In this document: positions 1,215 to 12,791 of the stretch, piece after piece
How the letters are laid out: each line of letters opens with the position of its first letter
Numbering within the stretch: the stretch's first letter is position 1
NCBI RefSeq assembly: GCF_021044755.1
Contig: NZ_JAJNOR010000011.1
Location: 43,920-75,919 of the forward strand
Direction of reading: 5' to 3'
DNA from: Lientehia hominis
Lineage (GTDB): Bacteria > Bacillota > Clostridia > Lachnospirales > Lachnospiraceae
DNA: 32,000 bases
The notes under the pieces: model-generated
What the model was told of the DNA's origin: nothing
The model's database searches: none
What the model saw: only the letters and a program-made list of their open reading frames with translations
Translations under genes and position numbers: made by a program

Positions 1215-1632
1215 CTTGGGTATGATACTAAATACTTTTTGGAATCATTTATAGTTAGCTCCGATCAAGTTCCGGTTAAGCGCTGGCAGAAGTTCCGGAC
1301 CGCCGCGATTTCGGTTCGCTGGCGATGAAGGGGCCGCTTTATCCCCGCTCCGGCAGTACCGCTCACATGTCGACAGGAAATCTTTATGATTTCCCGTCTC
1401 CTGTTCGCTCAGAAACGGAATCGGTATTTCCGTTTCTGTCTTCCTCCGTCTGGGGAACACCGGCCGCTGCCCTGCGGCGCTCACCTTTAGGCCGGCCCGG
1501 AATCTCTCTGCCGGCGCCCTGCCTGCCGCACTGTACCGGACAAATTTCATTTCTTAGATTCCAGAAAAGGATCGGATATCCGCAAGGCCCGCGCGCCTAC
1601 GGCAGCGGGCCTCCGTGGCCGCTCCAATGGCT
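1215..1632 (-). ncRNA. Candidate unclassified structured RNA, copy A (inverted partner of 10952-11365)
   Basis: The reverse complement aligns by eye with 10952-11365 at roughly nine positions in ten over the core. It contains a perfect 11-bp hairpin (1410-1420 / 1428-1438) and an 11-bp hairpin (1372-1382 / 1388-1398) that is fully paired with one G.U only when read on the minus strand. A 7-bp GC stem lies at 1586-1592 / 1605-1611. ORFs are open on both strands, there is no RBS, and differences between the copies are not biased to third codon positions, so coding is unlikely. Boundaries are approximate. Confidence 0.5.
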
Positions 1633-1722: not shown

Positions 1723-2610
1723 TCAAAGGTATTCCTGCTCCGACCAGGACTGCAGGTATTCGATGAATATCCGGGCGATGGCCGATAAATAAGCATTTTT
1801 GCTTCGGATTACGGAGATACTGGAGGTAAGGCGCTCATCGTCGATCTGTTTCCAGATAATATCCTTATGATGGAACAAGGTCATGGCGGAAGCAGGCAGG
1901 ATTCCGACACCCAATCCGGCGTCAGTCCAGAACGCGGTGGTTCTGGCGTCATCATTTTTACAGAAGGGTGACAGTTCCAGGTCGGCGGAGTGAAATGCTT
2001 CTTCCAGGATACCTTCCCACCGGCGGTAGAGGATCAGCGGCAGGCGGGATAATTCACGAAGTGTAATCTTGCCGGAGGATATCTGCCCGAAAAAACTGCG
2101 GTGTCCGGCCGCCAGGATGGGTTCTTCCTTAAGAGGGATACAATAAAAATCACCTGCTGGAAAAGGCGTCCTTACAATGGCCAGTTCAATGAGGCCGCCG
2201 TGGAGCTTTTCCAGGAGCTGGTACGTGTCGGCTTCTGATATTTCAAACCGGATATCAGGATGGCTTTCGTGAAACTCGCGGAACCATTGACAGAAAAGCG
2301 TGCTGCCCACAGAGGAGACGACGCCGAGACGCAGGGTACCGTGGGAGCCATGTCTGTATTCCTGCAGCTCATCCTTCATCAGGGATGACATATGGAGCAG
2401 AGTGGAGGCGCGGCTGTACATCATACGGCCGGCGTCAGTCAGCTGGATGGAGCGGGGGCCGCGTTCGAAGAGCAGGCAGCCGACCTCGTCTTCCAGAAGA
2501 CGGAGCTGAGTACTGAGAGGCGGCTGAGTCATGTGGAGTTTTTTGGCTGCGGCGGAGATAGTCCCTTCGTTGACCACGGTAATGAAATAAGTCAATTGTT
2601 TAAAATCCAT
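1723..2610 (-). CDS. LysR family transcriptional regulator
   Basis: 295-aa ORF with an N-terminal LysR winged HTH (MDFKQLTYFITVVNEGTISAAAKKLHMTQPPLSTQLRLLEDEVGCLLFERGPRSIQLTDAG) and a C-terminal substrate-binding domain. It is divergent from the ABC exporter pair. Confidence 0.9.
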   Translation of the reverse strand: MDFKQLTYFITVVNEGTISAAAKKLHMTQPPLSTQLRLLEDEVGCLLFERGPRSIQLTDAGRMMYSRASTLLHMSSLMKDELQEYRHGSHGTLRLGVVSSVGSTLFCQWFREFHESHPDIRFEISEADTYQLLEKLHGGLIELAIVRTPFPAGDFYCIPLKEEPILAAGHRSFFGQISSGKITLRELSRLPLILYRRWEGILEEAFHSADLELSPFCKNDDARTTAFWTDAGLGVGILPASAMTLFHHKDIIWKQIDDERLTSSISVIRSKNAYLSAIARIFIEYLQSWSEQEYL

Positions 2611-4494: not shown

Positions 4495-6247
4495 TAAATG
4501 GAAAAAGAAAGCCGTCAAAAAGGATACCTTCCGGAAGATATTGAAATACATTCGGAAATACTGGTTTTTTGTTGGTCTGTCTCTGATCTTCGCGGCGGCG
4601 ACGGTGGCTTTGACTTTATATATTCCGATTTTGACCGGCCGTGCCATCGACAGTATCCTGGGTCCGGGAGAGGTAGACTTTAACGGAGTGCGGAATGTGT
4701 TGCAGACGATCGTTGTGGTAATCATTTTGACCTCATTGGCCCAGTGGGTGATGAACGTATGCAACAACAGGATTACTTATCATGTGATCCGGGATATCCG
4801 GAGAGACGCCTTTGGCAAAATAGAGATTCTTCCATTAAGATATATCGACAGCCATTCCTACGGAGAGATCGTGAGTCGTGTGATCGCTGATGTGGACCAG
4901 TTTGCGGACGGACTTCTCATGGGGTTTACCCAGCTGTTTACGGGAGTCATGACCATATTCGGTACACTCGGCTTTATGCTGCTGGTAAATGTGAAGATTA
5001 CACTGGTCGTGGTGCTGATTACGCCGGTCTCCCTGTTTGCGGCCAGCTTTATCGCCAAAAGGACATATTCTATGTTTAAGCTCCAGTCAGAGACTAGAGG
5101 AGAGCAGACGGCGCTCATTGAAGAGGCGATTGGAAATCAGAAAGTCGTGCAGGCTTTTGGACATGAGGAAGAGAGCCAGAAGCAGTTTGACGAGATCAAC
5201 GGCCGCCTGGAAAAATGCTCCCTTCGGGCAACCTTCTTTTCTTCTCTGGTGAACCCGTGTACCCGATTTGTGAATAGTCTCGTGTACACCGGAGTCGGCA
5301 TAACAGGGGCGCTGTCTGCCATAGCCGGGGGAATCAGCGTCGGACAGCTGGCCTGTTTTCTGACCTACGCCAATCAATATACGAAGCCCTTCAACGAGAT
5401 TTCCGGGGTGGTGACGGAGCTTCAGAATGCCATTGCCTGTGCGGCAAGGATTTTTGAGCTTATTGAGGAAGAGCCCCAGGTTCCCGACAGAGCGGATGCC
5501 ATAGAGCTTACGCATGCAGCCGGAAATGTTTCATTGGATCATGTGCGCTTTTCCTATAGTCCGGGGCAGAAGCTGATCGAGAATTTTAATTTGAATGTGA
5601 AGCCCGGACAGAGAGTGGCCATCGTGGGACCGACCGGATGCGGAAAGACTACAGTGATCAACCTGCTGATGCGTTTTTATGATGTGGACAGCGGAGAGAT
5701 CCGGGTGGACGGGACGGAGATTCAGGACATGACCAGAAAGAGTCTTCGGAGCAGCTATGGTATGGTACTTCAGGATACCTGGCTGAGAAACGGCACCATT
5801 AGGGAGAATATTGCAATGGGGCGGCCGGACGCTGCAGAAGAAGAAATCATAGAGGCGGCCAAGGCGTCTCATGCCCACAGTTTCATAAAGCGCCTGCCTC
5901 AGGGCTATGATACCGTTATCGCCGAGGACGGTGATAACCTCTCTCAAGGCCAGAAACAGCTTCTGTGCATTACCAGAGTCATGCTCTGCCTGCCCCCGAT
6001 GCTGATCCTGGATGAGGCCACCTCTTCTATAGATACCAGGACAGAGATTCGGATACAGAAGGCCTTTGCCAAGATGATGGAGGGCAGGACCAGCTTTATC
6101 GTGGCCCACAGGCTTTCCACGATCCGAGAGGCGGATATCATACTGGTGATGAAGGACGGGAATATAGTAGAGCAGGGAAACCACGCCGGTCTGCTGGAGA
6201 AAAACGGGTTTTATGCGAAGCTGTATAACAGCCAGTTTTCGGTATGA
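4487..6247 (+). CDS. ABC exporter permease/ATPase fusion, heterodimer subunit with consensus catalytic site
   Basis: The ORF is 4358..6247. The likely start is the ATG at 4487 (MDDKWKKK), with AAGGAGGA 8 nt upstream, overlapping the upstream stop (4492-4494). Walker A is GPTGCGKTT, Walker B is LILDEATSSID with the catalytic Glu, and the H-loop is AHR. The signature motif is degenerate (LSQGQKQL). Confidence 0.9.
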   Translation: MDDKWKKKAVKKDTFRKILKYIRKYWFFVGLSLIFAAATVALTLYIPILTGRAIDSILGPGEVDFNGVRNVLQTIVVVIILTSLAQWVMNVCNNRITYHVIRDIRRDAFGKIEILPLRYIDSHSYGEIVSRVIADVDQFADGLLMGFTQLFTGVMTIFGTLGFMLLVNVKITLVVVLITPVSLFAASFIAKRTYSMFKLQSETRGEQTALIEEAIGNQKVVQAFGHEEESQKQFDEINGRLEKCSLRATFFSSLVNPCTRFVNSLVYTGVGITGALSAIAGGISVGQLACFLTYANQYTKPFNEISGVVTELQNAIACAARIFELIEEEPQVPDRADAIELTHAAGNVSLDHVRFSYSPGQKLIENFNLNVKPGQRVAIVGPTGCGKTTVINLLMRFYDVDSGEIRVDGTEIQDMTRKSLRSSYGMVLQDTWLRNGTIRENIAMGRPDAAEEEIIEAAKASHAHSFIKRLPQGYDTVIAEDGDNLSQGQKQLLCITRVMLCLPPMLILDEATSSIDTRTEIRIQKAFAKMMEGRTSFIVAHRLSTIREADIILVMKDGNIVEQGNHAGLLEKNGFYAKLYNSQFSV

Positions 6248-6436
6248 TACCCTGCTGAAGAAACAGGAGGAATTCCTATTTTATTCAGGCGGGCCGCCGG
6301 CTGCCGTAATCAGTATCTTTACGGCTTCCGGGCGGTCCTGCAAAGCTGACATGGATAAACCGGTATTTTTCCATGTCAGATTCCAGCAAAAAGATGTGCT
6401 TGATCCTGTAGTAAGTTCGTTTTTTGGTGTTATTTT

Positions 6437-6676
6437 TTATGAAGGCAGCTGATTATCTTTCTTGTCAAACAATCCCCATACCGCTATTACAAGTCCGATG
6501 ACTGCAATTGCAATAAAGCAGTAAAATGCGGGCATAAGTCTATATTGCGATATGTTCCAAAATGAGGAGAATTGACCATTTACCGTCCACTCGTTACTCA
6601 TGCTTCCTGCCAATACTATTGACAAAGAAAGCACGCCTGCAAGAAACATCATTGATCCCAAAACTACTTTTTTCAT
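6437..6676 (-). CDS. Small hypothetical membrane protein (79 aa, about three hydrophobic helices)
   Basis: GGAGG lies 6 nt upstream of the ATG (6683-6687 on the + strand as CCTCC). The sequence is hydrophobic (MKKVVLGSMMFLAGVLSLSIVLAG..FYCFIAIAVIGLVIAVWGLF). It is the first gene of the AT-richer island. I recognise no family. Confidence 0.55.
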   Translation of the reverse strand: MKKVVLGSMMFLAGVLSLSIVLAGSMSNEWTVNGQFSSFWNISQYRLMPAFYCFIAIAVIGLVIAVWGLFDKKDNQLPS

Positions 6677-6957
6677 AAGCTTCCTCCATAAATTGTAATT
6701 TGAATATCAGTAAATCATGACCTCTCAACAGAGGTTACAGTGTTTTAATAAAATCTTCCACAAGCCTTGAAAATAAAGGATTTATCGCAATGTGTTCGCT
6801 TAATCTCTTTATACGGTTACACACAAGTTTACTCTTTCTCTCATTGCTCATAAGGGCAAATGCAAGGGCAAGAAAATCTCATAACAAGATATAACAGAGT
6901 GTGGCATTCGGAGAACTGTGATGTATGTGTGAATATATTATAGCGGAGGATTTTTCA

Positions 6958-7225
6958 ATGGACAAGTATATTTACAATGATAAAAATGGTCTGTGGTATA
7001 AATTGTAGGGAGATTATTATATCCTTTGTCTTATTGAACAGCTATCTTGCGGCTGTTGACAAACAGGCGAAAGATATGTTTCTTCGGTTAGTAAAGCAAA
7101 TGGCGAAGCGTGAGGGCGTGACCGAGTGGCTAAAGGCAGATAATCAAATGGAATGGGTAAAAAAGATGGGCAATATCCATGCAAGAGCAAGGGAAATTGT
7201 TAATGCAGAATTGATATTTTCATAA
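6958..7225 (+). pseudogene. TnpV-like small transposon/ICE protein, disrupted
   Basis: The C-terminal part of ORF 6977..7225 (LNSYLAAVDKQAKDMFLRLVKQMAKREGVTEWLKADNQMEWVKKMGNIHARAREIVNAELIF) matches my recollection of TnpV-type proteins of clostridial Tn4451-like/ICE elements. An N-terminal piece, MDKYIYNDKNGLWYKL-TAG-GDYYI, starts at 6958 in a different frame. That implies a nonsense codon plus an internal deletion or frameshift. The family assignment is from memory, not from a search. Confidence 0.55.
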
Positions 7226-7286
7226 GGATAGTTGGGGAACTGTATTAAAAACGTCGTTCCCCTTTCCTTGATCAAAACACAAAGTC

Positions 7287-7336
7287 TTGACTTTGCCATA
7301 AAAACCAGTATAATATACATATACCCCCAAGAGTAT
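7287..7336 (+). promoter_or_regulatory. Candidate promoter and partial operator of the CsoR-family gene
   Basis: TTGACT (7287-7292), a 16-nt spacer, then TATAAT (7309-7314). This is followed by ATACCCCCAAGAGTAT (7321-7336), a weaker version of the ATACC..GGTAT dyads found upstream of the ATPase. Confidence 0.45.
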
Positions 7337-7348
7337 AGGAGTGTTGCG

Positions 7349-7624
7349 ATGAAACAATGTATGGATGCTGATAATCTGCATCGCAGATTGAAAAAAATAA
7401 TCGGACAAGTACAGGCAATCGACAGAATGATCGATGAAGATGTCCCCTGTGAAGATGTCCTTTCACAGTTAAATGCCGCTAAATCTGCATTGCATAAGTG
7501 CGGACAGGTGGTGCTTGAAGGACACATTAAGCACTGCGTCAAGGACGGGATAGAACACGGGGACGCAGACAAAACGATTGAGGAATTTACTAAAGCGGTA
7601 GAGCGTTTTGCTAATATGGGTTAA
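7349..7624 (+). CDS. CsoR/RcnR-family (DUF156) metal-sensing transcriptional repressor
   Basis: The ORF is 7232..7624. The likely start is the ATG at 7349 (MKQCMDADNLHRRLKKIIGQVQAIDRMI), giving 91 aa, typical for the family, with AGGAG upstream. Family hallmarks are present: L.RI.GQ..ai.rMi, Cys in DVPCEDV, and His-x3-Cys in GHIKHC (an x-C-H-C ligand pattern). Confidence 0.85.
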   Translation: MKQCMDADNLHRRLKKIIGQVQAIDRMIDEDVPCEDVLSQLNAAKSALHKCGQVVLEGHIKHCVKDGIEHGDADKTIEEFTKAVERFANMG

Positions 7625-7637
7625 CGAAATTATTGCG

Positions 7638-7670
7638 AAAAGCAGTTGAAACAGACTGCTTTTTTCTTTT
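7638..7670 (+). terminator. Rho-independent terminator after the CsoR-family gene
   Basis: Stem AAGCAGT/ACTGCTT (7640-7646 / 7655-7661), 8-nt loop, followed by TTTTTCTTTT. Confidence 0.7.
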
Positions 7671-7676
7671 GCATTC

Positions 7677-7728
7677 TTGACAAACCTATACCCCTTATGG
7701 TATTCTGTACCCATACCCCATAGGGTAT
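7677..7728 (+). promoter_or_regulatory. ATPase promoter with two CsoR-type operator dyads
   Basis: -35 TTGACA (7677-7682), an 18-nt spacer, then -10 TATTCT (7701-7706). Dyad 1 is ATACC-N6-GGTAT (7688-7703) and overlaps the spacer and the -10. Dyad 2 is ATACCC-CATA-GGGTAT (7713-7728), just downstream of the -10. RBS GGAGGG (7734-7739) precedes the ATG at 7745. Confidence 0.6.
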
Positions 7729-7744
7729 AGAACGGAGGGCCTCA

Positions 7745-9625
7745 ATGAAAGCATTTATGGAGAAATTGGAGTATTTGCTTGAAATCGGAGGAACGAAGAA
7801 AGATATTACATTTCTTGTTATCTCAGGTATTGCTCTTATTTGCAGTCTGACAGGCATACTTGATTTTCTGCCTTTTGATGTCGCTTGGGTGTCAATCGTT
7901 TTATGCGGTGTGCCTATTATTTTGGAAGCGGTCATTGGTCTTATTACAGCCTTTGATATCAAAGCGGATGTGCTGGTATCCCTTGCGCTGATTGCTTCTG
8001 TCTGCATAAGCGAGGATTTTGCGGCGGGTGAGGTTGCTTTTATCATGCAGATCGGCTCTCTGCTTGAAGATTTAACCGTAGCAAAAGCAAGAGCAGGCAT
8101 TGAAAAATTGGTAAAGCTGACGCCGCAGACAGCACGCATCATGCGTGGCGGAGTAGAATCTGTTATTCCCGCAAGTGAAGTAAAAATCGGAGATATTCTC
8201 CGTGTTTTGCCGGGTGAAGGAATTGCCGTTGATGGTATTATTACTTCAGGACAAACTTCTATTGACCAAGCGGTTATGACGGGGGAGCCTATTCCTATCG
8301 ATAAAACGGTTGGAGATGAGGTATCAAGCGGAACAGTAAACCGCTTTGGAGCTTTTGAAATGAAAGCCACAAAGGTTGGCGAGGACAGTTCTATTCAGCG
8401 AATGATCAGTCTTGTTCAATCGGCAGATGCGGGAAAAGCAAAGATTGTCGGCATGGCAGACCGATGGGCAACTTGGATTGTAGTGATTGCTCTGGCCGCC
8501 GCATCACTTACTTGGGCAATAACGGGAGAAATTATCCGTGCGGTCACAATTCTTGTTGTGTTTTGCCCCTGTGCTTTGGTGCTTGCGACGCCTACTGCGA
8601 TCATGGCAGCGATTGGCAATGCCACAAAGCACAGTTTCCTTGTGCGTGAAGGAGACGCTTTGGAAAGATTATCAAAGGTTTCGAGAGTGACCTTTGACAA
8701 GACAGGAACATTGACCTACGGAAAGCCAAAGGTAATAGCTGTAAAATCCCTTTCGGAAAGCTATGCGGAACAGGATATTTATGCTCTTGCCGTCGCTGCG
8801 GAGCAGTTCTCGGAACATCCGCTTGGTAAAGCAATTGTTAGTTGCTACAAGCAGAATACGAATACATCTATCCCAAAAACGACTGATTTTGAAATGCAGC
8901 TTGGACAGGGCGTATGCGCTGTTGTAGATGGAAAGCGTATTTTTGCGGGCAAGCTGGATATGATGAATGGGGATAAAGCTGCTTGTCAGACAAATCCCGA
9001 AATTCAAGGTTTTTTGAATAATGGCAGCACAATAACCTACATATCCGCAGATGACGAGATGATTGGATATCTTGTGTTGTCTGATACTATTCGAAAAGAA
9101 AGTACTGAAATGATTGATGCTTTGCGGAACTGTGGTGTTCAGCCTGTGCTTTTGACGGGTGATAACGAAAACTCTGCAAATAGTATTGCAAAGCAGTTAG
9201 GTATTGGTGAAGTATATGCAAGCTGTTTGCCTGAAGATAAGTTGAAGCTGATTGAAGAATATCAGGAGAAAAGGCAGGCTGTTTGTATGATTGGGGACGG
9301 TATTAACGATGCACCCGCACTGAAAAAGGCAACGGTTGGTATTGCAATGGGCGGGATTGGAAGTGATATTGCAGTAGATGCAGCTGATATTGTATTGGTA
9401 AATGATGAAGTTAAAGAGCTCCCTCATTTAATATCCCTGTCTAAACGAATGATGATCACGATAAAACTTAACTTGGGTTTTTCAATGGGACTGAATTTCC
9501 TTGCCATCGTTCTTGCTATAACAGGTATTCTGAATCCTGTTGTGGGTGCACTTGTCCACAATGCAGGCTCTGTGCTTGTAATTATAAATTCAGCATTACT
9601 ATTAAAATGGAGGAAAAGAAAATGA
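7745..9625 (+). CDS. Heavy-metal-translocating P1B-type ATPase, short form without an N-terminal metal-binding domain
   Basis: 626-aa ORF with TGE (MTGEPIPIDK), a CPC transmembrane motif (VFCPCALVLATP), DKTGT (FDKTGTLT), TGDN and GDGINDAPAL. There is no N-terminal CxxC/HMA domain. The last TM carries HNAGS rather than the Cu-type MxxSS or the Zn/Cd-type ADxG. Confidence 0.92.
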   Translation: MKAFMEKLEYLLEIGGTKKDITFLVISGIALICSLTGILDFLPFDVAWVSIVLCGVPIILEAVIGLITAFDIKADVLVSLALIASVCISEDFAAGEVAFIMQIGSLLEDLTVAKARAGIEKLVKLTPQTARIMRGGVESVIPASEVKIGDILRVLPGEGIAVDGIITSGQTSIDQAVMTGEPIPIDKTVGDEVSSGTVNRFGAFEMKATKVGEDSSIQRMISLVQSADAGKAKIVGMADRWATWIVVIALAAASLTWAITGEIIRAVTILVVFCPCALVLATPTAIMAAIGNATKHSFLVREGDALERLSKVSRVTFDKTGTLTYGKPKVIAVKSLSESYAEQDIYALAVAAEQFSEHPLGKAIVSCYKQNTNTSIPKTTDFEMQLGQGVCAVVDGKRIFAGKLDMMNGDKAACQTNPEIQGFLNNGSTITYISADDEMIGYLVLSDTIRKESTEMIDALRNCGVQPVLLTGDNENSANSIAKQLGIGEVYASCLPEDKLKLIEEYQEKRQAVCMIGDGINDAPALKKATVGIAMGGIGSDIAVDAADIVLVNDEVKELPHLISLSKRMMITIKLNLGFSMGLNFLAIVLAITGILNPVVGALVHNAGSVLVIINSALLLKWRKRK

Positions 9626-9798
9626 TCATTTCGACTATCGGTATGTTGATCGGCGCTTTGGTTGCTGGAGTAGGTATTTACTATCTCGTCAAAGAAAAAC
9701 AGGATAAGGAATCCGTGAAAATTTACGGAATCATCAGTGTTGTCGGCGGCGTTATCTTTATTGGAATGCTTGTCAAGTTGATTTTAGAACTACTATAA
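9622..9798 (+). CDS. Small two-TM membrane protein, translationally coupled to the ATPase
   Basis: The ATG at 9622 overlaps the ATPase stop (ATGA), and GGAGGA (9609-9614) lies 7 nt upstream. The product is 58 aa: MIISTIGMLIGALVAGVGIYYLVKEK..IISVVGGVIFIGMLVKLILELL. The ORF track start at 9607 is less likely. Confidence 0.55.
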   Translation: MIISTIGMLIGALVAGVGIYYLVKEKQDKESVKIYGIISVVGGVIFIGMLVKLILELL

Positions 9799-9818
9799 TT
9801 GTGCAGGACTTATAAGAG

Positions 9819-9987
9819 ATGGACATATTGGCTTTGTAGTGGATTATTTGCCCTATCTGCGGCAATAAAACTCGCACAATGATACGGGACAAAATTAAGA
9901 AACTTTCCCCTATATTGTCCGAAATGCAAAAAGGAAACACTCATCAACGATCAAGATATGAAATTCATGCTTTCAGAACATAAATAG
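9819..9987 (+). pseudogene. Cysteine-rich KTR-type small mobile-element protein, disrupted
   Basis: WIICPICGNKTRTMIRDK is in one frame and continues after a 1-nt shift in an A-run as LRNFPLYCPKCKKETLINDQDMKFMLSEHK-stop. An in-frame TAG sits immediately before the Trp. The pattern CPxCGNKTR..NFPLYCPKCK matches my memory of the Cys-rich KTR family seen in Firmicute ICEs and transposons. No intact ORF is present. Confidence 0.5.
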
Positions 9988-10001
9988 GATTCTTTATGTA
10001 T

Positions 10002-10045
10002 GCCGCCGCATGGTTAAAACCATAGCGGCGGTGTTTCCTTTATCA
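10002..10045. terminator. Rho-independent terminator, probably bidirectional
   Basis: GC-rich stem CCGCCGCATGGTT / AACCAT(A)GCGGCGG (about 10002-10032) followed by TGTTTCCTTTAT. It lies between the + strand KTR remnant and the end of the minus-strand frameshifted ORF. Confidence 0.65.
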
Positions 10046-10266
10046 TCAGTTTTTGCATGGTGCGGAACACTTCCATATTTATCTCAACAATCCTATCAAA
10101 GACGGTCGGCTTAAAAGTTTCCGTTACAGCCGCTACAATTGTTCTTTCTGGGTTTACATAGATTACATTCCCTCTGTCCCGGCATAATAATCTCTTCTTT
10201 CAAATAATAGAAAGTTCGAAACATTTTCCTATCTGAATTTTTATCTATAACAGGTCTTGCAGCCAT
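10014..10266 (-). pseudogene. Frameshifted small ORF of unknown family
   Basis: The ATG at 10266 is preceded by AAGGGGAA. It reads MAARPVIDKNSDRKMFRTFYYLKEEIIMPGQRECNLCKPRKNNCSGCNGNF-stop. The +1 frame continues openly as GNVIYVNPERTIVAAVTETFKPTVFDRIVEINMEVFRTMQKLMIKETPPLWF-stop. This looks like one roughly 85-aa gene broken by a single frameshift. I recognise no family. Confidence 0.3.
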
Positions 10267-10337
10267 ATTGTTCCCCTTCTTAAATTTTGATTTTCAGCTT
10301 ACAAGCTGGAGCGTATCGTTTTCTGTTAATATAACAG

Positions 10338-10496
10338 TCAACTGTCACGCATTGTCTGTACTGCGGCAATAAATACAATCGTTCCGACGATACTTGTAAC
10401 TGCACCCATGACTCGAATAACGGTAAAGCTATGACTTTTTCCAATAAAGATACTGAAAAGTCCTGCTGCAGATACAAGAACAGCCGCGATCTTCAT
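10338..10496 (-). CDS. Unannotated 52-aa two-TM small protein
   Basis: It falls below the ORF-track size cutoff. The ATG at 10496 has GGAGG 5 nt upstream. Product: MKIAAVLVSAAGLFSIFIGKSHSFTVIRVMGAVTSIVGTIVFIAAVQTMRDS. It is co-directional with and 17 nt downstream of the 39-aa ORF. Confidence 0.4.
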   Translation of the reverse strand: MKIAAVLVSAAGLFSIFIGKSHSFTVIRVMGAVTSIVGTIVFIAAVQTMRDS

Positions 10497-10513
10497 AGTG
10501 ACCTCCACAAATT

Positions 10514-10633
10514 TCACAAAGCCAGCTTTGTCTTTTCCGATTTGGTCTGTCTGTATTCTCTGCTTTTGGATACATTTTTACAGCAAAGCAAGCTGTTTTT
10601 TCCTTCTGACATTGTTCTGATTTTGCAGTCCAT
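10514..10633 (-). CDS. Unannotated 39-aa basic Cys-containing peptide
   Basis: The ATG at 10633 has GGAGG 5 nt upstream. Product: MDCKIRTMSEGKNSLLCCKNVSKSREYRQTKSEKTKLAL. It lies just downstream of a consensus-like minus-strand promoter. The ORF is very short, so the coding status is uncertain. Confidence 0.3.
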   Translation of the reverse strand: MDCKIRTMSEGKNSLLCCKNVSKSREYRQTKSEKTKLAL

Positions 10634-10666
10634 AACCGCCTCCTACAACATTGGATTGATAAGGGT

Positions 10667-10695
10667 ATTATACCGTCATTTAATACCGCTTACAA
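10667..10695 (-). promoter_or_regulatory. Candidate sigma-A promoter for the small-ORF micro-operon
   Basis: On the minus strand: TTGTAA (10690-10695), a 17-nt spacer, then TATAAT (10667-10672), about 30 nt upstream of the first small ORF. Confidence 0.4.
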
Positions 10696-10951
10696 GTTAA
10701 ACAGTTACGCCTATTTAAGAGGGAGGTTTTGCTTGACGAGTGCGCTGTTTTATAATAAAATAATGTCGTTGAGCGTATATATATTCATAGCATGGATGAA
10801 TGTTTCTACCAACTGCCGTTTCAGTTGACTATAGGTTCTCACTAAGGAGAAGCTGTAGCATTGGGACGGTAGTTTTTGATTTTTATACCTTTGAAAATCT
10901 TTCAAACAAGTTTTCTATACCTGATTTAAATTGGCAAGAGGAAATCCGATT

Positions 10952-11365
10952 CCATCCAGGCGGCTCACCGCGGCCCGCTGCCGTAAAGCGCGCGGGCCCT
11001 GTGGATATCCAATCCTTTTTTGGAATCAGGAAAATGGCGAATATTCTTAACGGTGCGGCAGGCAGGGCACCGGCAGAACGATCCCGGGCCGGCCTAAAGG
11101 AGAGCGCCGCAGGGCAGCGGCCGGTGTTCCCCTGGCGGAGGGAGGCAGAAACGGAAATACCGATTCCGTTTCTGAGAGAACAGGAGGCAGGAAATCATAA
11201 AGATTTCCTGTCGACATGTGAGCGGTACTGCCGGAACGGGGATAAAGCGGCCCCTGCATCGCCAGCGAACCGAAATCGTGACGGTCCGGAACTTCTGCTA
11301 GTGCTTAACCGGAGATTAATCGGGATTAGCTAAAAATGATTTCTAAAGGTATACCATAGAGTATG
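10952..11365 (+). ncRNA. Candidate unclassified structured RNA, copy B (inverted partner of 1215-1632), possibly a leader of the downstream FAD-oxidoreductase gene
   Basis: GC-rich and hairpin-dense. There is a 7-bp stem at 10972-10978 / 10992-10998, a 6-bp stem at 11051-11056 / 11067-11072, and a perfect 11-bp hairpin at 11146-11156 / 11164-11174. An 11-bp hairpin at 11186-11196 / 11202-11212 is fully paired (one G.U) only on the + strand. The listed ORFs 10800..11333 (+) and 11047..11259 (-) overlap on both strands and lack RBSs. The element ends about 30 nt before the RBS of the gene at 11397, with no obvious terminator between. Boundaries are approximate. Confidence 0.5.
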
Positions 11366-11396: not shown

Positions 11397-12791
11397 ATGA
11401 AGTATGATGCAGTGATTATTGGCGCGGGGCCGGCCGGGATTTTTACGGCCTTGGAGATGCTCAGGAAGGGCAGCAGAAAGAAGATTCTGATGGTGGAGCA
11501 GGGACGGCCGGTGGAAAAACGGAAATGTCCTAAGGGAGAGGCCGGCCGGTGTATCGGCTGTGACCCCTGCAGCATCACGACAGGGTTTTCCGGAGCCGGA
11601 GCTTTTTCTGATGGGAAGCTTTCTTTAAGCTGTGAGGTAGGCGGAGATCTGCCGGAGCTCATTGGGGAAGAATTCGCCCAGGAGATTATAGATTATGCGG
11701 ACAGCATTTATCTGGAGTTCGGAGCGGACAAAAAGGTCGAGGGAATCGGCCAGGGAGAAAAGATCAAAGGGATCCGGAAAAGGGCAATACAGGCAGGGCT
11801 TAAACTGGTCGACTGTCCGATACGGCATTTGGGCACGGAAAAAGCCCAGGCTCTTTATCGGTCCATAGAAGAATATCTGCTGGAGCACGGCGTGGAAATA
11901 TGGTTTGGTTACCGGTGTGAGGACATCCGGATAGAAGACAATGTCTGCCGCAGCGTCCTGCTTAAAAAGAACGGTGCACAGGATGAGGGAGAATATGTGG
12001 ATGCGGATAGTATCGTTCTGGCGACCGGCCGGCGGGGAGCCGACTGGCTGGAGGGAATCTGTTCCAAATATGGAATTGCCCATAAACCGGGCACCGTGGA
12101 TATCGGAGTTCGGGTGGAGGTGCGGAATGAGATCATGGAGGATGTCAACAATGTGCTGTATGAATCCAAGCTGATCGGATATCCGAAGCCTTTTAAGAAT
12201 AAGGTCCGTACCTTCTGCCAGAATCCCGGCGGTTTTGTCAGCCAGGAAAATTATGAAGGCAATTTGGCTGTGGTGAACGGACATTCCTTCAAGGAACTCA
12301 AATCGGGCAACACCAATCTGGCAATCCTGTGTTCCCATAATTTTGCGGAACCGTTCAGCCAGCCCATCGCCTATGCCAGAAAAATGGGAGAGCTCACCAA
12401 TATGCTGGGAGACGGCCATATTCTGGTACAGCGTTATGGGGATATCCTGGATGGAAAGCGGACCTGGCAGAAAGAATTGTCCCGTTCCAACGTGAAACCG
12501 ACACTTCCGGACGCGGTGGCGGGAGATATCACATCCGCTATGCCATACCGGGCCATGACGAACATCATCAACTTTATTCAGGCTGTAGACATGGTGGTGC
12601 CGGGTTTCGCCAGCACCGAGACTCTGCTCTATTCTCCGGAGATTAAATTTTACAGTAACCGGGTGAAGATGGATAAAGAACTTACCACCAGCGTACAGAA
12701 TCTGTTCTGCCTGGGTGACTCCAGCGGATGGACCAGAGGGCTTATGATGGCCTCGGCCATGGGGATCCTTTTAGGGCGCCGGCTGGCGTGA
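11397..12791 (+). CDS. FAD-dependent oxidoreductase (uncharacterised FAD-dependent dehydrogenase family)
   Basis: 464-aa ORF with an N-terminal Rossmann dinucleotide motif (KYDAVIIGAGPAGIFTALEM) and a late GD motif (FCLGDSSGWTRG). Its length and layout fit the uncharacterised COG2509-type FAD proteins. RBS AAAGGGG is upstream. Confidence 0.85.
   Translation: MKYDAVIIGAGPAGIFTALEMLRKGSRKKILMVEQGRPVEKRKCPKGEAGRCIGCDPCSITTGFSGAGAFSDGKLSLSCEVGGDLPELIGEEFAQEIIDYADSIYLEFGADKKVEGIGQGEKIKGIRKRAIQAGLKLVDCPIRHLGTEKAQALYRSIEEYLLEHGVEIWFGYRCEDIRIEDNVCRSVLLKKNGAQDEGEYVDADSIVLATGRRGADWLEGICSKYGIAHKPGTVDIGVRVEVRNEIMEDVNNVLYESKLIGYPKPFKNKVRTFCQNPGGFVSQENYEGNLAVVNGHSFKELKSGNTNLAILCSHNFAEPFSQPIAYARKMGELTNMLGDGHILVQRYGDILDGKRTWQKELSRSNVKPTLPDAVAGDITSAMPYRAMTNIINFIQAVDMVVPGFASTETLLYSPEIKFYSNRVKMDKELTTSVQNLFCLGDSSGWTRGLMMASAMGILLGRRLA

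Follow-up and report, generated by a model that had tools for sequence, protein, structure and literature searches.

The described systems closest to the element reported here are the repetitive extragenic palindromic (REP) sequences with their compound forms, bacterial interspersed mosaic elements (BIMEs) and REPINs, which are associated with RAYT transposases of the HUH (Y1) type, the palindrome-associated transposable elements (PATEs) of the IS200/IS605 insertion sequences (IS), and group IIC introns that lack an open reading frame (ORF). Our subject is a hairpin-rich stretch, called copy B, lying just ahead of a flavin adenine dinucleotide (FAD)-dependent oxidoreductase gene in 32,000 nucleotides of Lientehia hominis DNA (contig NZ_JAJNOR010000011.1; hereafter the window, numbered from its first letter). 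An earlier note on this DNA had taken the stretch for an unclassified structured RNA and a possible leader of that gene. Copy B is shown here to be a decayed, internally deleted member of a dispersed non-coding repeat, and it probably arose as an insertion of a non-autonomous, ORF-less interspersed repeat of ~730 nt which is mobilised in trans.

Several features are common to this repeat and to the REP, BIME and REPIN group, namely short hairpin units (here a 58-nt unit, the T-unit) beside larger quasi-palindromic units, a short conserved motif next to the hairpin, an intergenic location that is typically after gene ends or terminators, occurrence as single, tandem (locus L013) or inverted units, and lack of both an ORF and a target-site duplication. 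The main unit is, however, ~730 nt long instead of ~35-150 nt, has a multi-domain fold with a conserved interior, and is hosted by a lineage of Clostridia. The likeness to PATEs lies in the lack of clear terminal inverted repeats and of target-site duplications, in the ATACC pentanucleotide present at the left flank and the right end, in a compensated 5' subterminal hairpin and in a strand-symmetric signal as for DNA hairpins. The repeat departs from PATEs in that flanks of 4-10 kb yielded neither a relic of tnpA or tnpB nor an autonomous IS to match, in that its termini are its least conserved part, and in that the three copies from Qiania dongpingensis show no obvious replication-strand bias.

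With ORF-less group IIC introns (PMC4748821, PMC4424553) the repeat has in common a length of ~0.7 kb, multiple copies, domains built on long-range helices and, putatively, a trans-supplied factor; mostly sense insertion past Rho-independent terminators (PMC4748821) is a further likeness, the resemblance being one of behaviour only. In contrast to these introns, the repeat carries no strand signal and some of its copies are antisense to all neighbours. A full-length copy gave no match to domain V, Intron_gpII or group-II-D1D4 at E<=10, and its boundaries, ATACC/TTTGAA... and ...GTATCATACC, are not those of a group II intron (GUGYG...AY). A group I intron or IStron was likewise rejected (no RF00028 match; none of six boundary registers within ATACC ends in G).

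Classical MITEs (miniature inverted-repeat transposable elements) such as Correia, RUP and bcr1 (PMC10969869) and stem-loop repeats (PMC2267715) are, like the present family, non-coding, multi-copy, dispersed and intergenic; variable presence, internal deletion, frequent co-transcription and mis-annotation as small ORFs are also common to them (PMC10969869, PMC2267715). Unlike classical MITEs, the repeat stands at the top of the size range, has no consistent target-site duplication, has ends that are less conserved than the interior, and possesses a covarying global fold. HEARO/IscB and TnpB omega-RNAs are similarly structured, multi-copy, associated with mobile elements and able to lack an adjacent ORF; this class was rejected, with no Rfam HEARO match, no IscB or TnpB gene nearby and a repeat two to three times larger. 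In invertible switches of the 5' untranslated region (UTR), as in C. difficile cwpV, the element lies between promoter and ORF and its orientation varies. The orientation of the repeat also differs between genomes at the same junctions, but such switches are not dispersed homologous 730-nt families, and no mixed orientations within a population were seen here.

The repeat family and copy B

Full-length units measure 719-733 nt despite 12-15% divergence, contain no ORF and are built of a 5' module of ~65 nt, a middle module of ~200 nt and a 3' module of ~440 nt. Among 185,579 species representatives, a 20-mer from the repeat had 14 occurrences, spread over six contigs of one genome, MGYG-HGUT-00118 (Lachnospiraceae bacterium), and one additional chance match. 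The number of copies is at least 15 in MGYG-HGUT-00118 and at least 17 in Qiania dongpingensis, where they are annotated as hypothetical proteins. A protein probe derived from a spurious ORF led to the recovery of five more loci in Lacrimispora sp. NSJ-141 and of several short gut-metagenome contigs. The three Qiania copies that were fetched are of full length and ~86% identical to those of MGYG-HGUT-00118, which sets them no further apart than the copies within one genome (83-90% identical).

In the window, the inverted second copy proposed earlier was confirmed by a 303-nt ungapped core at 90% identity (~400 nt at 86%), and a third, fragmentary copy was found. The copies and the parts of copy B, with positions on the family profile, are as follows.

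10885..11355, + strand: copy B, bounded by ATACC at 10885-10889 and 11351-11355; ~470 nt of the ~730-nt family unit
10885-10966, + strand: 5' module of copy B (profile positions 2-79)
10959-11355, + strand: 3' module of copy B (profile positions 325-724)
10959-10966, + strand: internal-deletion junction of copy B, a short repeat CCAT..GGCGGC found both in the 5' module and where the 3' module starts
11146..11212, + strand: pair of conserved hairpins in the 3' domain, 11146-11174 and 11186-11212, each with family-wide compensatory changes (helices 11 and 12)
11356..11364, + strand: ATAGAGTAT, between copy B and the flank GTACAAG that is common to MGYG-HGUT-00118; possibly a remnant of a hairpin T-unit
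1219-1732, - strand: copy A (profile positions 2-66 and 281-730), middle module deleted
1162-1221, + strand: T-unit at copy A, a 58-nt hairpin with ATACC ahead of it, adjoining the 3' end of copy A and lying just past the NlpC/P60 terminator (1116-1144)
6232-6394, + strand: third copy, a fragment (profile positions 21-178) directly after an ABC-transporter gene

Copy B has lost ~245 nt corresponding to the middle module. Its start is at 10885 and not at 10952 as first given. The sequence features described earlier were confirmed: all four stems were found (10972-78/10992-98, GGCCCGC/GCGGGCC; 11051-56/11067-72, CGGTGC/GCACCG; and two 11-bp hairpins, perfect at 11146-56/11164-74 and with one G.T at 11186-96/11202-12), and the GC content rises from 0.35 just upstream to 0.60. 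Compared with shuffled sequences, copy B folds with z = -3.0 on the + strand and, more weakly, z = -1.85 on the - strand. Copy B is individually ordinary; the repeat family is moderately interesting.

The status of an unclassified family, already suggested by the earlier note, was upheld, since no Rfam 15 family reached its gathering threshold on the window copies, five full-length loci or the Qiania loci. At E<=10, whatever the window copies and a full-length copy matched was noise (11-17 bits). Plasmid and phage collections searched by BLAST with a full-length copy returned no match; the core 23-mer and a degenerate left-end motif had 0 matches in JGI metagenomes; and in IMG/VR the core motif had 0 matches and the left-end motif 3, all due to chance. 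A literature search for an equivalent repeat retrieved no description. The family is an undescribed repeat specific to a few Lachnospiraceae, namely Lacrimispora sp. NSJ-141, the related MGYG-HGUT-00118 and Qiania dongpingensis. What is new for the field is an ORF-less, 730-nt repeat of gut Lachnospiraceae with a compensated fold, a habit of settling after terminators and a 58-nt satellite which has the same ends.

Fold, covariation and strand

An alignment of 12 full-length copies was analysed with RNAalifold, which predicted ~195 pairs on either strand (-223 and -229 kcal/mol). Covariation was tested on the 101 pairs predicted on both strands, in which 97.9% of the cells are paired. Changes on both sides of the pair were found in 14 of them. 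Column shuffles gave 5.3 ± 1.5, none of 500 attaining 14, and the number fell to 0-2 when the partners were slid by 1-3 columns; the covariation score was 0.090 versus 0.054. The helices supported in this way comprise hairpins as well as long-range pairings (columns 57-115 with 217-279, and 442-458 with 662-677), and compensatory changes were also present in the 5' subterminal hairpin (columns 35-54). Clustering of the substitutions is strong (chi-square 117, 35 df, P about 1e-10): variability is highest in the ~60 columns at either end and conservation in the interior, with near-invariant unpaired blocks such as CTAAAGGTGAGCGCC and GACATGTGAGCGGTACT. The metagenomic copy L027 carries at 820-870 a 30-nt insertion at the tip of a conserved GC-rich hairpin, forming a perfect stem of its own (AAGAATCCTG...CAGGATTCTT). 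The covariation, the clustering of substitutions and this stem-forming insertion indicate together that the fold is under constraint. The profile partly matches its own reverse complement, which makes the repeat unit a large quasi-palindrome.

The claim of a structured element, for which a covariation check had been proposed, is therefore supported by the excess of compensated pairs over the shuffles. The same cannot be said of the strand. The earlier note had fixed it from an A-U/G.U swap at two stem positions of the 11186-11212 hairpin; the swap does exist, but it is not family-wide and leaves the strand unfixed. Over the 101 strand-neutral pairs the ratio of G.U to AxC was 14:21 (p=0.31). 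The alifold energies were near equal (-223 vs -229), with a preference that reverses on a broader, gappier alignment (-90 vs -116), and at unpaired positions A showed no excess over U (0.35 vs 0.31, p=0.5). The element is non-coding, structured and of no known class, and three tests gave it no strand signal.

Ends, insertion sites and orthologous loci

ATACC, or a variant with one mismatch, stands directly ahead of the TTTGAATAC... that opens the core and again at the core 3' end. The exact pentamer was counted at the 5' flank of 13 of ~20 copies and at the 3' end of 9 of ~18, most of the others being one mismatch off. At L004 the flanking pentamers are ACACC and GTACC; such independent deviation within one copy points to a fixed terminal or target motif and not to a random duplication. 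The longest string common to both flanks was 5.5 nt when the flanks belonged to one copy and 5.2 nt when they were mismatched, and no target-site duplication emerged. Compared as terminal inverted repeats, the core ends match well in copy B (14/16) and in L002, and only weakly in the majority of copies.

The T-unit ('tail') is a 58-nt mini-unit of two hairpins (TTGCCGCACGAAGTGCGCC...GGGCATGAATTAAGGGATGCCCTTGGGT), flanked by ATACC as the core is. Beside the core it occurs singly, inverted or in tandem; the tandem is at L013 6034-6155, and T-units also stand alone beside terminators at L001 5003-5069 and L008 7647-7712. The T-unit behaves like an independent REP-like mini-element. A palindrome, GGTATACC, arises where units join, and in L027 only, T-units at both ends make up ~60-bp inverted repeats.

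All 17 copies examined are intergenic, in mixed orientation, and three are antisense to both neighbour genes; at least 20 copies other than copy B are found in unrelated intergenic contexts and in both orientations. In about 9-10 of 21 arrays, copy B and all three Qiania copies among them, a terminator hairpin with its T-run lies directly 5' of the repeat in sense orientation, and a terminator abuts the other end in a further 3-4. One of the full-length Qiania copies (L025 9518-9590) follows a tRNA gene and its terminator and lies upstream of a DNA methyltransferase/helicase (ResIII) gene pair. The earlier note had named a transposase-bearing IS as an alternative source of such repeats; no transposase was present within 4-10 kb of any of the more than 20 copies inspected.

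Related genomes vary in the presence of the repeat at orthologous sites. Where four such sites could be compared, three had alike flanks and hairpin unit around an inverted core: the copy B site, the copy A site (from the NlpC/P60 terminator to the LysR 3' end) and a MerR site (MGYG-HGUT-00118 versus a metagenomic organism). At the copy B junctions of MGYG-HGUT-00118, whose FAD-oxidoreductase is 98% identical, the left (...GTTTTTGATTTTTA|) and right (|GTACAA...) junctions match those of the window and the hairpin unit is present, while the repeat is inverted and carries another internal deletion. At the copy A site the 5' end of the repeat supplies the stop codon of a LysR-family gene (1723-2610, - strand), which ends GAA TAC CTT TGA (window 1723-1732). 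In MGYG-HGUT-00118 the LysR stop (L033 3735-3740) comes from the opposite end of the repeat and reads GAA TGA. The insertion has replaced the native LysR C-terminus in both genomes. At the MerR site, a conserved MerR-type promoter (TTGACATAGAG..AGGTCC.GATG.TATG) is split from the MerR gene by a ~0.8-kb repeat, with opposite core orientations in the two organisms (L014 3440-3500 and L027 1290-1350); MerR transcription would have to cross the repeat.

The fourth site, after the ABC-transporter gene, has the same orientation in both genomes, with a longer copy in MGYG-HGUT-00118 in place of the window fragment 6232-6394. This fragment adjoins the left edge of an AT-rich segment of ~4.3 kb (6395-10730, GC 0.35-0.47) and the repeat may for this reason mark a hot spot of recombination or of insertion and deletion. 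The segment holds a P-type ATPase gene (7745-9625) and small ORFs. It sits between the ABC-transporter genes and the purine riboswitch described below, is absent in L018, and is replaced by a DUF4624 gene in MGYG-HGUT-00118.

Copies occupying a common site are 83-84% identical, about as paralogues are, and are not mutual closest relatives; neutral divergence between these genomes may be of the same order. A hairpin unit that stays fixed beside an inverted core is no paradox, because a symmetric unit-core-unit can insert or recombine either way.

Route of mobility and competing readings

The insertion site of copy B lies between the terminator of the purine riboswitch and the ribosome-binding site of the FAD-oxidoreductase gene. 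An enzyme encoded elsewhere would recognise ATACC or the folded ends and move the repeat in trans, most likely by way of single-stranded DNA. If the repeat is mobile, a route of this kind, analogous to that of REPs and REPINs or of the IS200/IS605-derived PATEs moved by an HUH (Y1) transposase, is tentatively favoured, though at less than even odds. It offers the best fit because of the fixed pentanucleotide at the left flank and right end, the lack of target duplication, the weak or absent terminal inverted repeats, the 5' subterminal hairpin, the mini-unit with the same ends, the strand-symmetric pairing and the sites behind terminators. Such a route would explain the compensatory changes seen symmetrically on both strands, the missing target duplication and the hairpin mini-unit. 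Were the fold to act as single-stranded DNA, REP/REPIN-like biology would reach the Clostridia, and at a much larger scale. The repeat may instead be a DDE-type MITE, for which the hairpin units would serve as long inverted repeats.

Several observations weigh against insertion by a trans-acting transposase as set out above. The 4-10 kb around each of more than 20 copies contained neither a transposase nor an autonomous parent. Conservation is lowest at the termini and highest in the interior, opposite to what a classical MITE shows, and compensated helices spanning ~200 nt are left unexplained by a transposase that reads only subterminal hairpins. An ancestral insertion followed by inversion is indistinguishable from repeated site-specific insertion, given that copies at the same site are only 83-84% identical. 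Finally, the first half of the record coordinates holds two of the three Qiania copies in opposite orientations, which weakly contradicts strict lagging-strand insertion.

An RNA route keeps a real probability, because an enzyme reading only the ends would account neither for the conserved interior nor for the long-range covariation. According to this explanation, which we consider unlikely, the family would be a mobile structured RNA (a ribozyme, a retroelement RNA or a guide or scaffold RNA) which spreads through an RNA intermediate to sites behind terminators, in analogy to those group IIC introns that lack an ORF and depend on a trans-supplied protein. The covariation with its long-range helices, an interior far more conserved than the ends with near-invariant unpaired blocks, the uniform full length despite the sequence divergence, the 30-nt stem-forming insertion at a conserved hairpin tip in one copy, and the mostly sense, post-terminator sites similar to those of group IIC introns (PMC4748821) all speak for an RNA. 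These points are countered by the lack of a strand signal in wobble versus AxC, alifold energies and unpaired A-richness, by the three of 17 copies antisense to both neighbours, and by the absence of Rfam group I or II intron, ribozyme or HEARO matches at E<=10. In addition, a conserved internal promoter was not found, no candidate boundary yields GUGYG...AY or a terminal G, and there is no reverse transcriptase gene nearby.

A stronger form of the same idea, in which the ~730-nt repeat would represent a new class of terminator-targeting, trans-mobilised structured RNA unrelated to described RNA families, is quite doubtful. The three covariation-supported domains would then make up the active molecule, either group-IIC-like or a giant guide or scaffold RNA of a transposon; this too we regard as quite doubtful. 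An RNA-acting fold, if real, would amount to a new mobile RNA class. With either type of fold, UTRs at both the 5' and the 3' side of genes receive structured sequence from the repeat, which can also rewrite the ends of genes, as seen for the LysR stop codon.

The inverted cores could also be read as those of an invertible, phase-variable cassette that flips between inverted hairpin units or between ATACC/GGTATACC sites, a proposal that we consider improbable, as is the role it would imply, namely control over whether transcription from a promoter, riboswitch or terminator lying upstream reads through into the gene. It draws on the inversion at three of four sites with the same flanks and hairpin unit, on the inverted hairpin units at both ends of one copy and the GGTATACC palindrome at unit junctions, and on the several copies placed between a promoter or terminator and a gene start. 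Against flipping, the L027 locus was in a single orientation in six metagenome samples, which gives no sign of frequent inversion, and opposite orientations were seen only between genomes. Most copies have one hairpin unit or none, no recombinase gene is nearby, and the inverted copies also differ by deletions and are ~83% identical, so that independent insertions fit equally well.

That copy B could act as a long cis-regulatory leader, as the earlier note had suggested, has to be judged against a regulatory element which was absent from that note. A purine riboswitch, the sole family matched when Rfam was run over the whole window, precedes the repeat. The features concerned are the following.

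10733-10761, + strand: promoter-like site ahead of the riboswitch
10755-10851, + strand: aptamer of the purine riboswitch (44.6 bits with RF00167, for which the gathering score is 37), a neighbour outside the repeat
10811..10884, + strand: riboswitch expression platform, a long terminator hairpin followed by a U-tract, TTTTTGATTTTT
11397..12791, + strand: FAD-dependent oxidoreductase gene, 100% identical to a Lacrimispora sp. NSJ-141 protein, 3' of the riboswitch and copy B

The terminator hairpin of the riboswitch ends ...GGUAGUUUUUGAUUUUU, and the ATACC of the repeat (10885-10889) begins at the very next base. The pairing of riboswitch and FAD-oxidoreductase gene is kept in three lineages (48.5 bits in L018 and 41 bits in L033). 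The exact FAD-oxidoreductase protein of the window had no entry in the assembly collection, and its homologues served to locate these loci. In a more distant relative (L018-L022; FAD-oxidoreductase 88% identical), ABC-transporter genes are followed by the riboswitch and, after ~97 nt, by the gene, and the repeat is absent. This empty site, together with the inverted and differently deleted allele of MGYG-HGUT-00118, argues that copy B was inserted here and did not evolve as a leader. What regulates the FAD-oxidoreductase gene is the purine riboswitch; the hairpin-rich stretch has been inserted as a passenger.

A dedicated leader RNA is very improbable on these grounds, even though copy B lies in the 5' UTR on the sense strand, 45 nt ahead of the start codon and with no intervening terminator. 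The gene already possesses a conserved riboswitch with its terminator, the site is empty or inverted and differently deleted in the relatives, a third of the family consensus is missing from copy B, and the other copies are in unrelated contexts. With relatives that lack copy B or carry it inverted, it would be dispensable for regulation. As an insertion behind the riboswitch, copy B would be transcribed only upon read-through of the riboswitch terminator, and the read-through transcript would gain a structured 5' UTR of ~470 nt.

The claim that the stretch holds no credible coding sequence was borne out by the lack of codon periodicity, in six frames, among 30 substitutions between copies A and B, which, in the frame open in both copies, would alter ~18 residues in every 100. 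That the repeat encodes a small protein, as GenBank annotations have it (LQE92_13860 in copy A; at least 17 in Qiania), is hardly credible: the same frame is open in both window copies and gene callers picked it in several genomes, but codon periodicity is absent, nonsynonymous and synonymous divergence are similar (dN ~ dS), no Pfam domain was found, ORF limits vary between copies, and sequence of ~60% GC yields long ORFs by chance. The annotated product in question is LQE92_13860 of Lacrimispora sp. NSJ-141, a hypothetical protein to which the ORF at 1245-1550 (- strand) is 100% identical. Together with the identity of the FAD-oxidoreductase, this match places the window in that organism. 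Spurious ORFs of the repeat number four more among the hypothetical proteins of NSJ-141 and at least 17 among those of Qiania dongpingensis (CP060634.1); these ORFs had no Pfam domain and no coding signal.

As to the gene downstream of copy B, an FAD-dependent oxidoreductase of the PF21688/PF07992 type is an unusual member for a purine regulon. A 722-aa homologue on an ENA metagenome contig (L024 4001-6169) aligns to it twice in tandem (window 11427-12763 and 12075-12763), as would result if part of the gene were duplicated internally or if gene calling had fused two genes.

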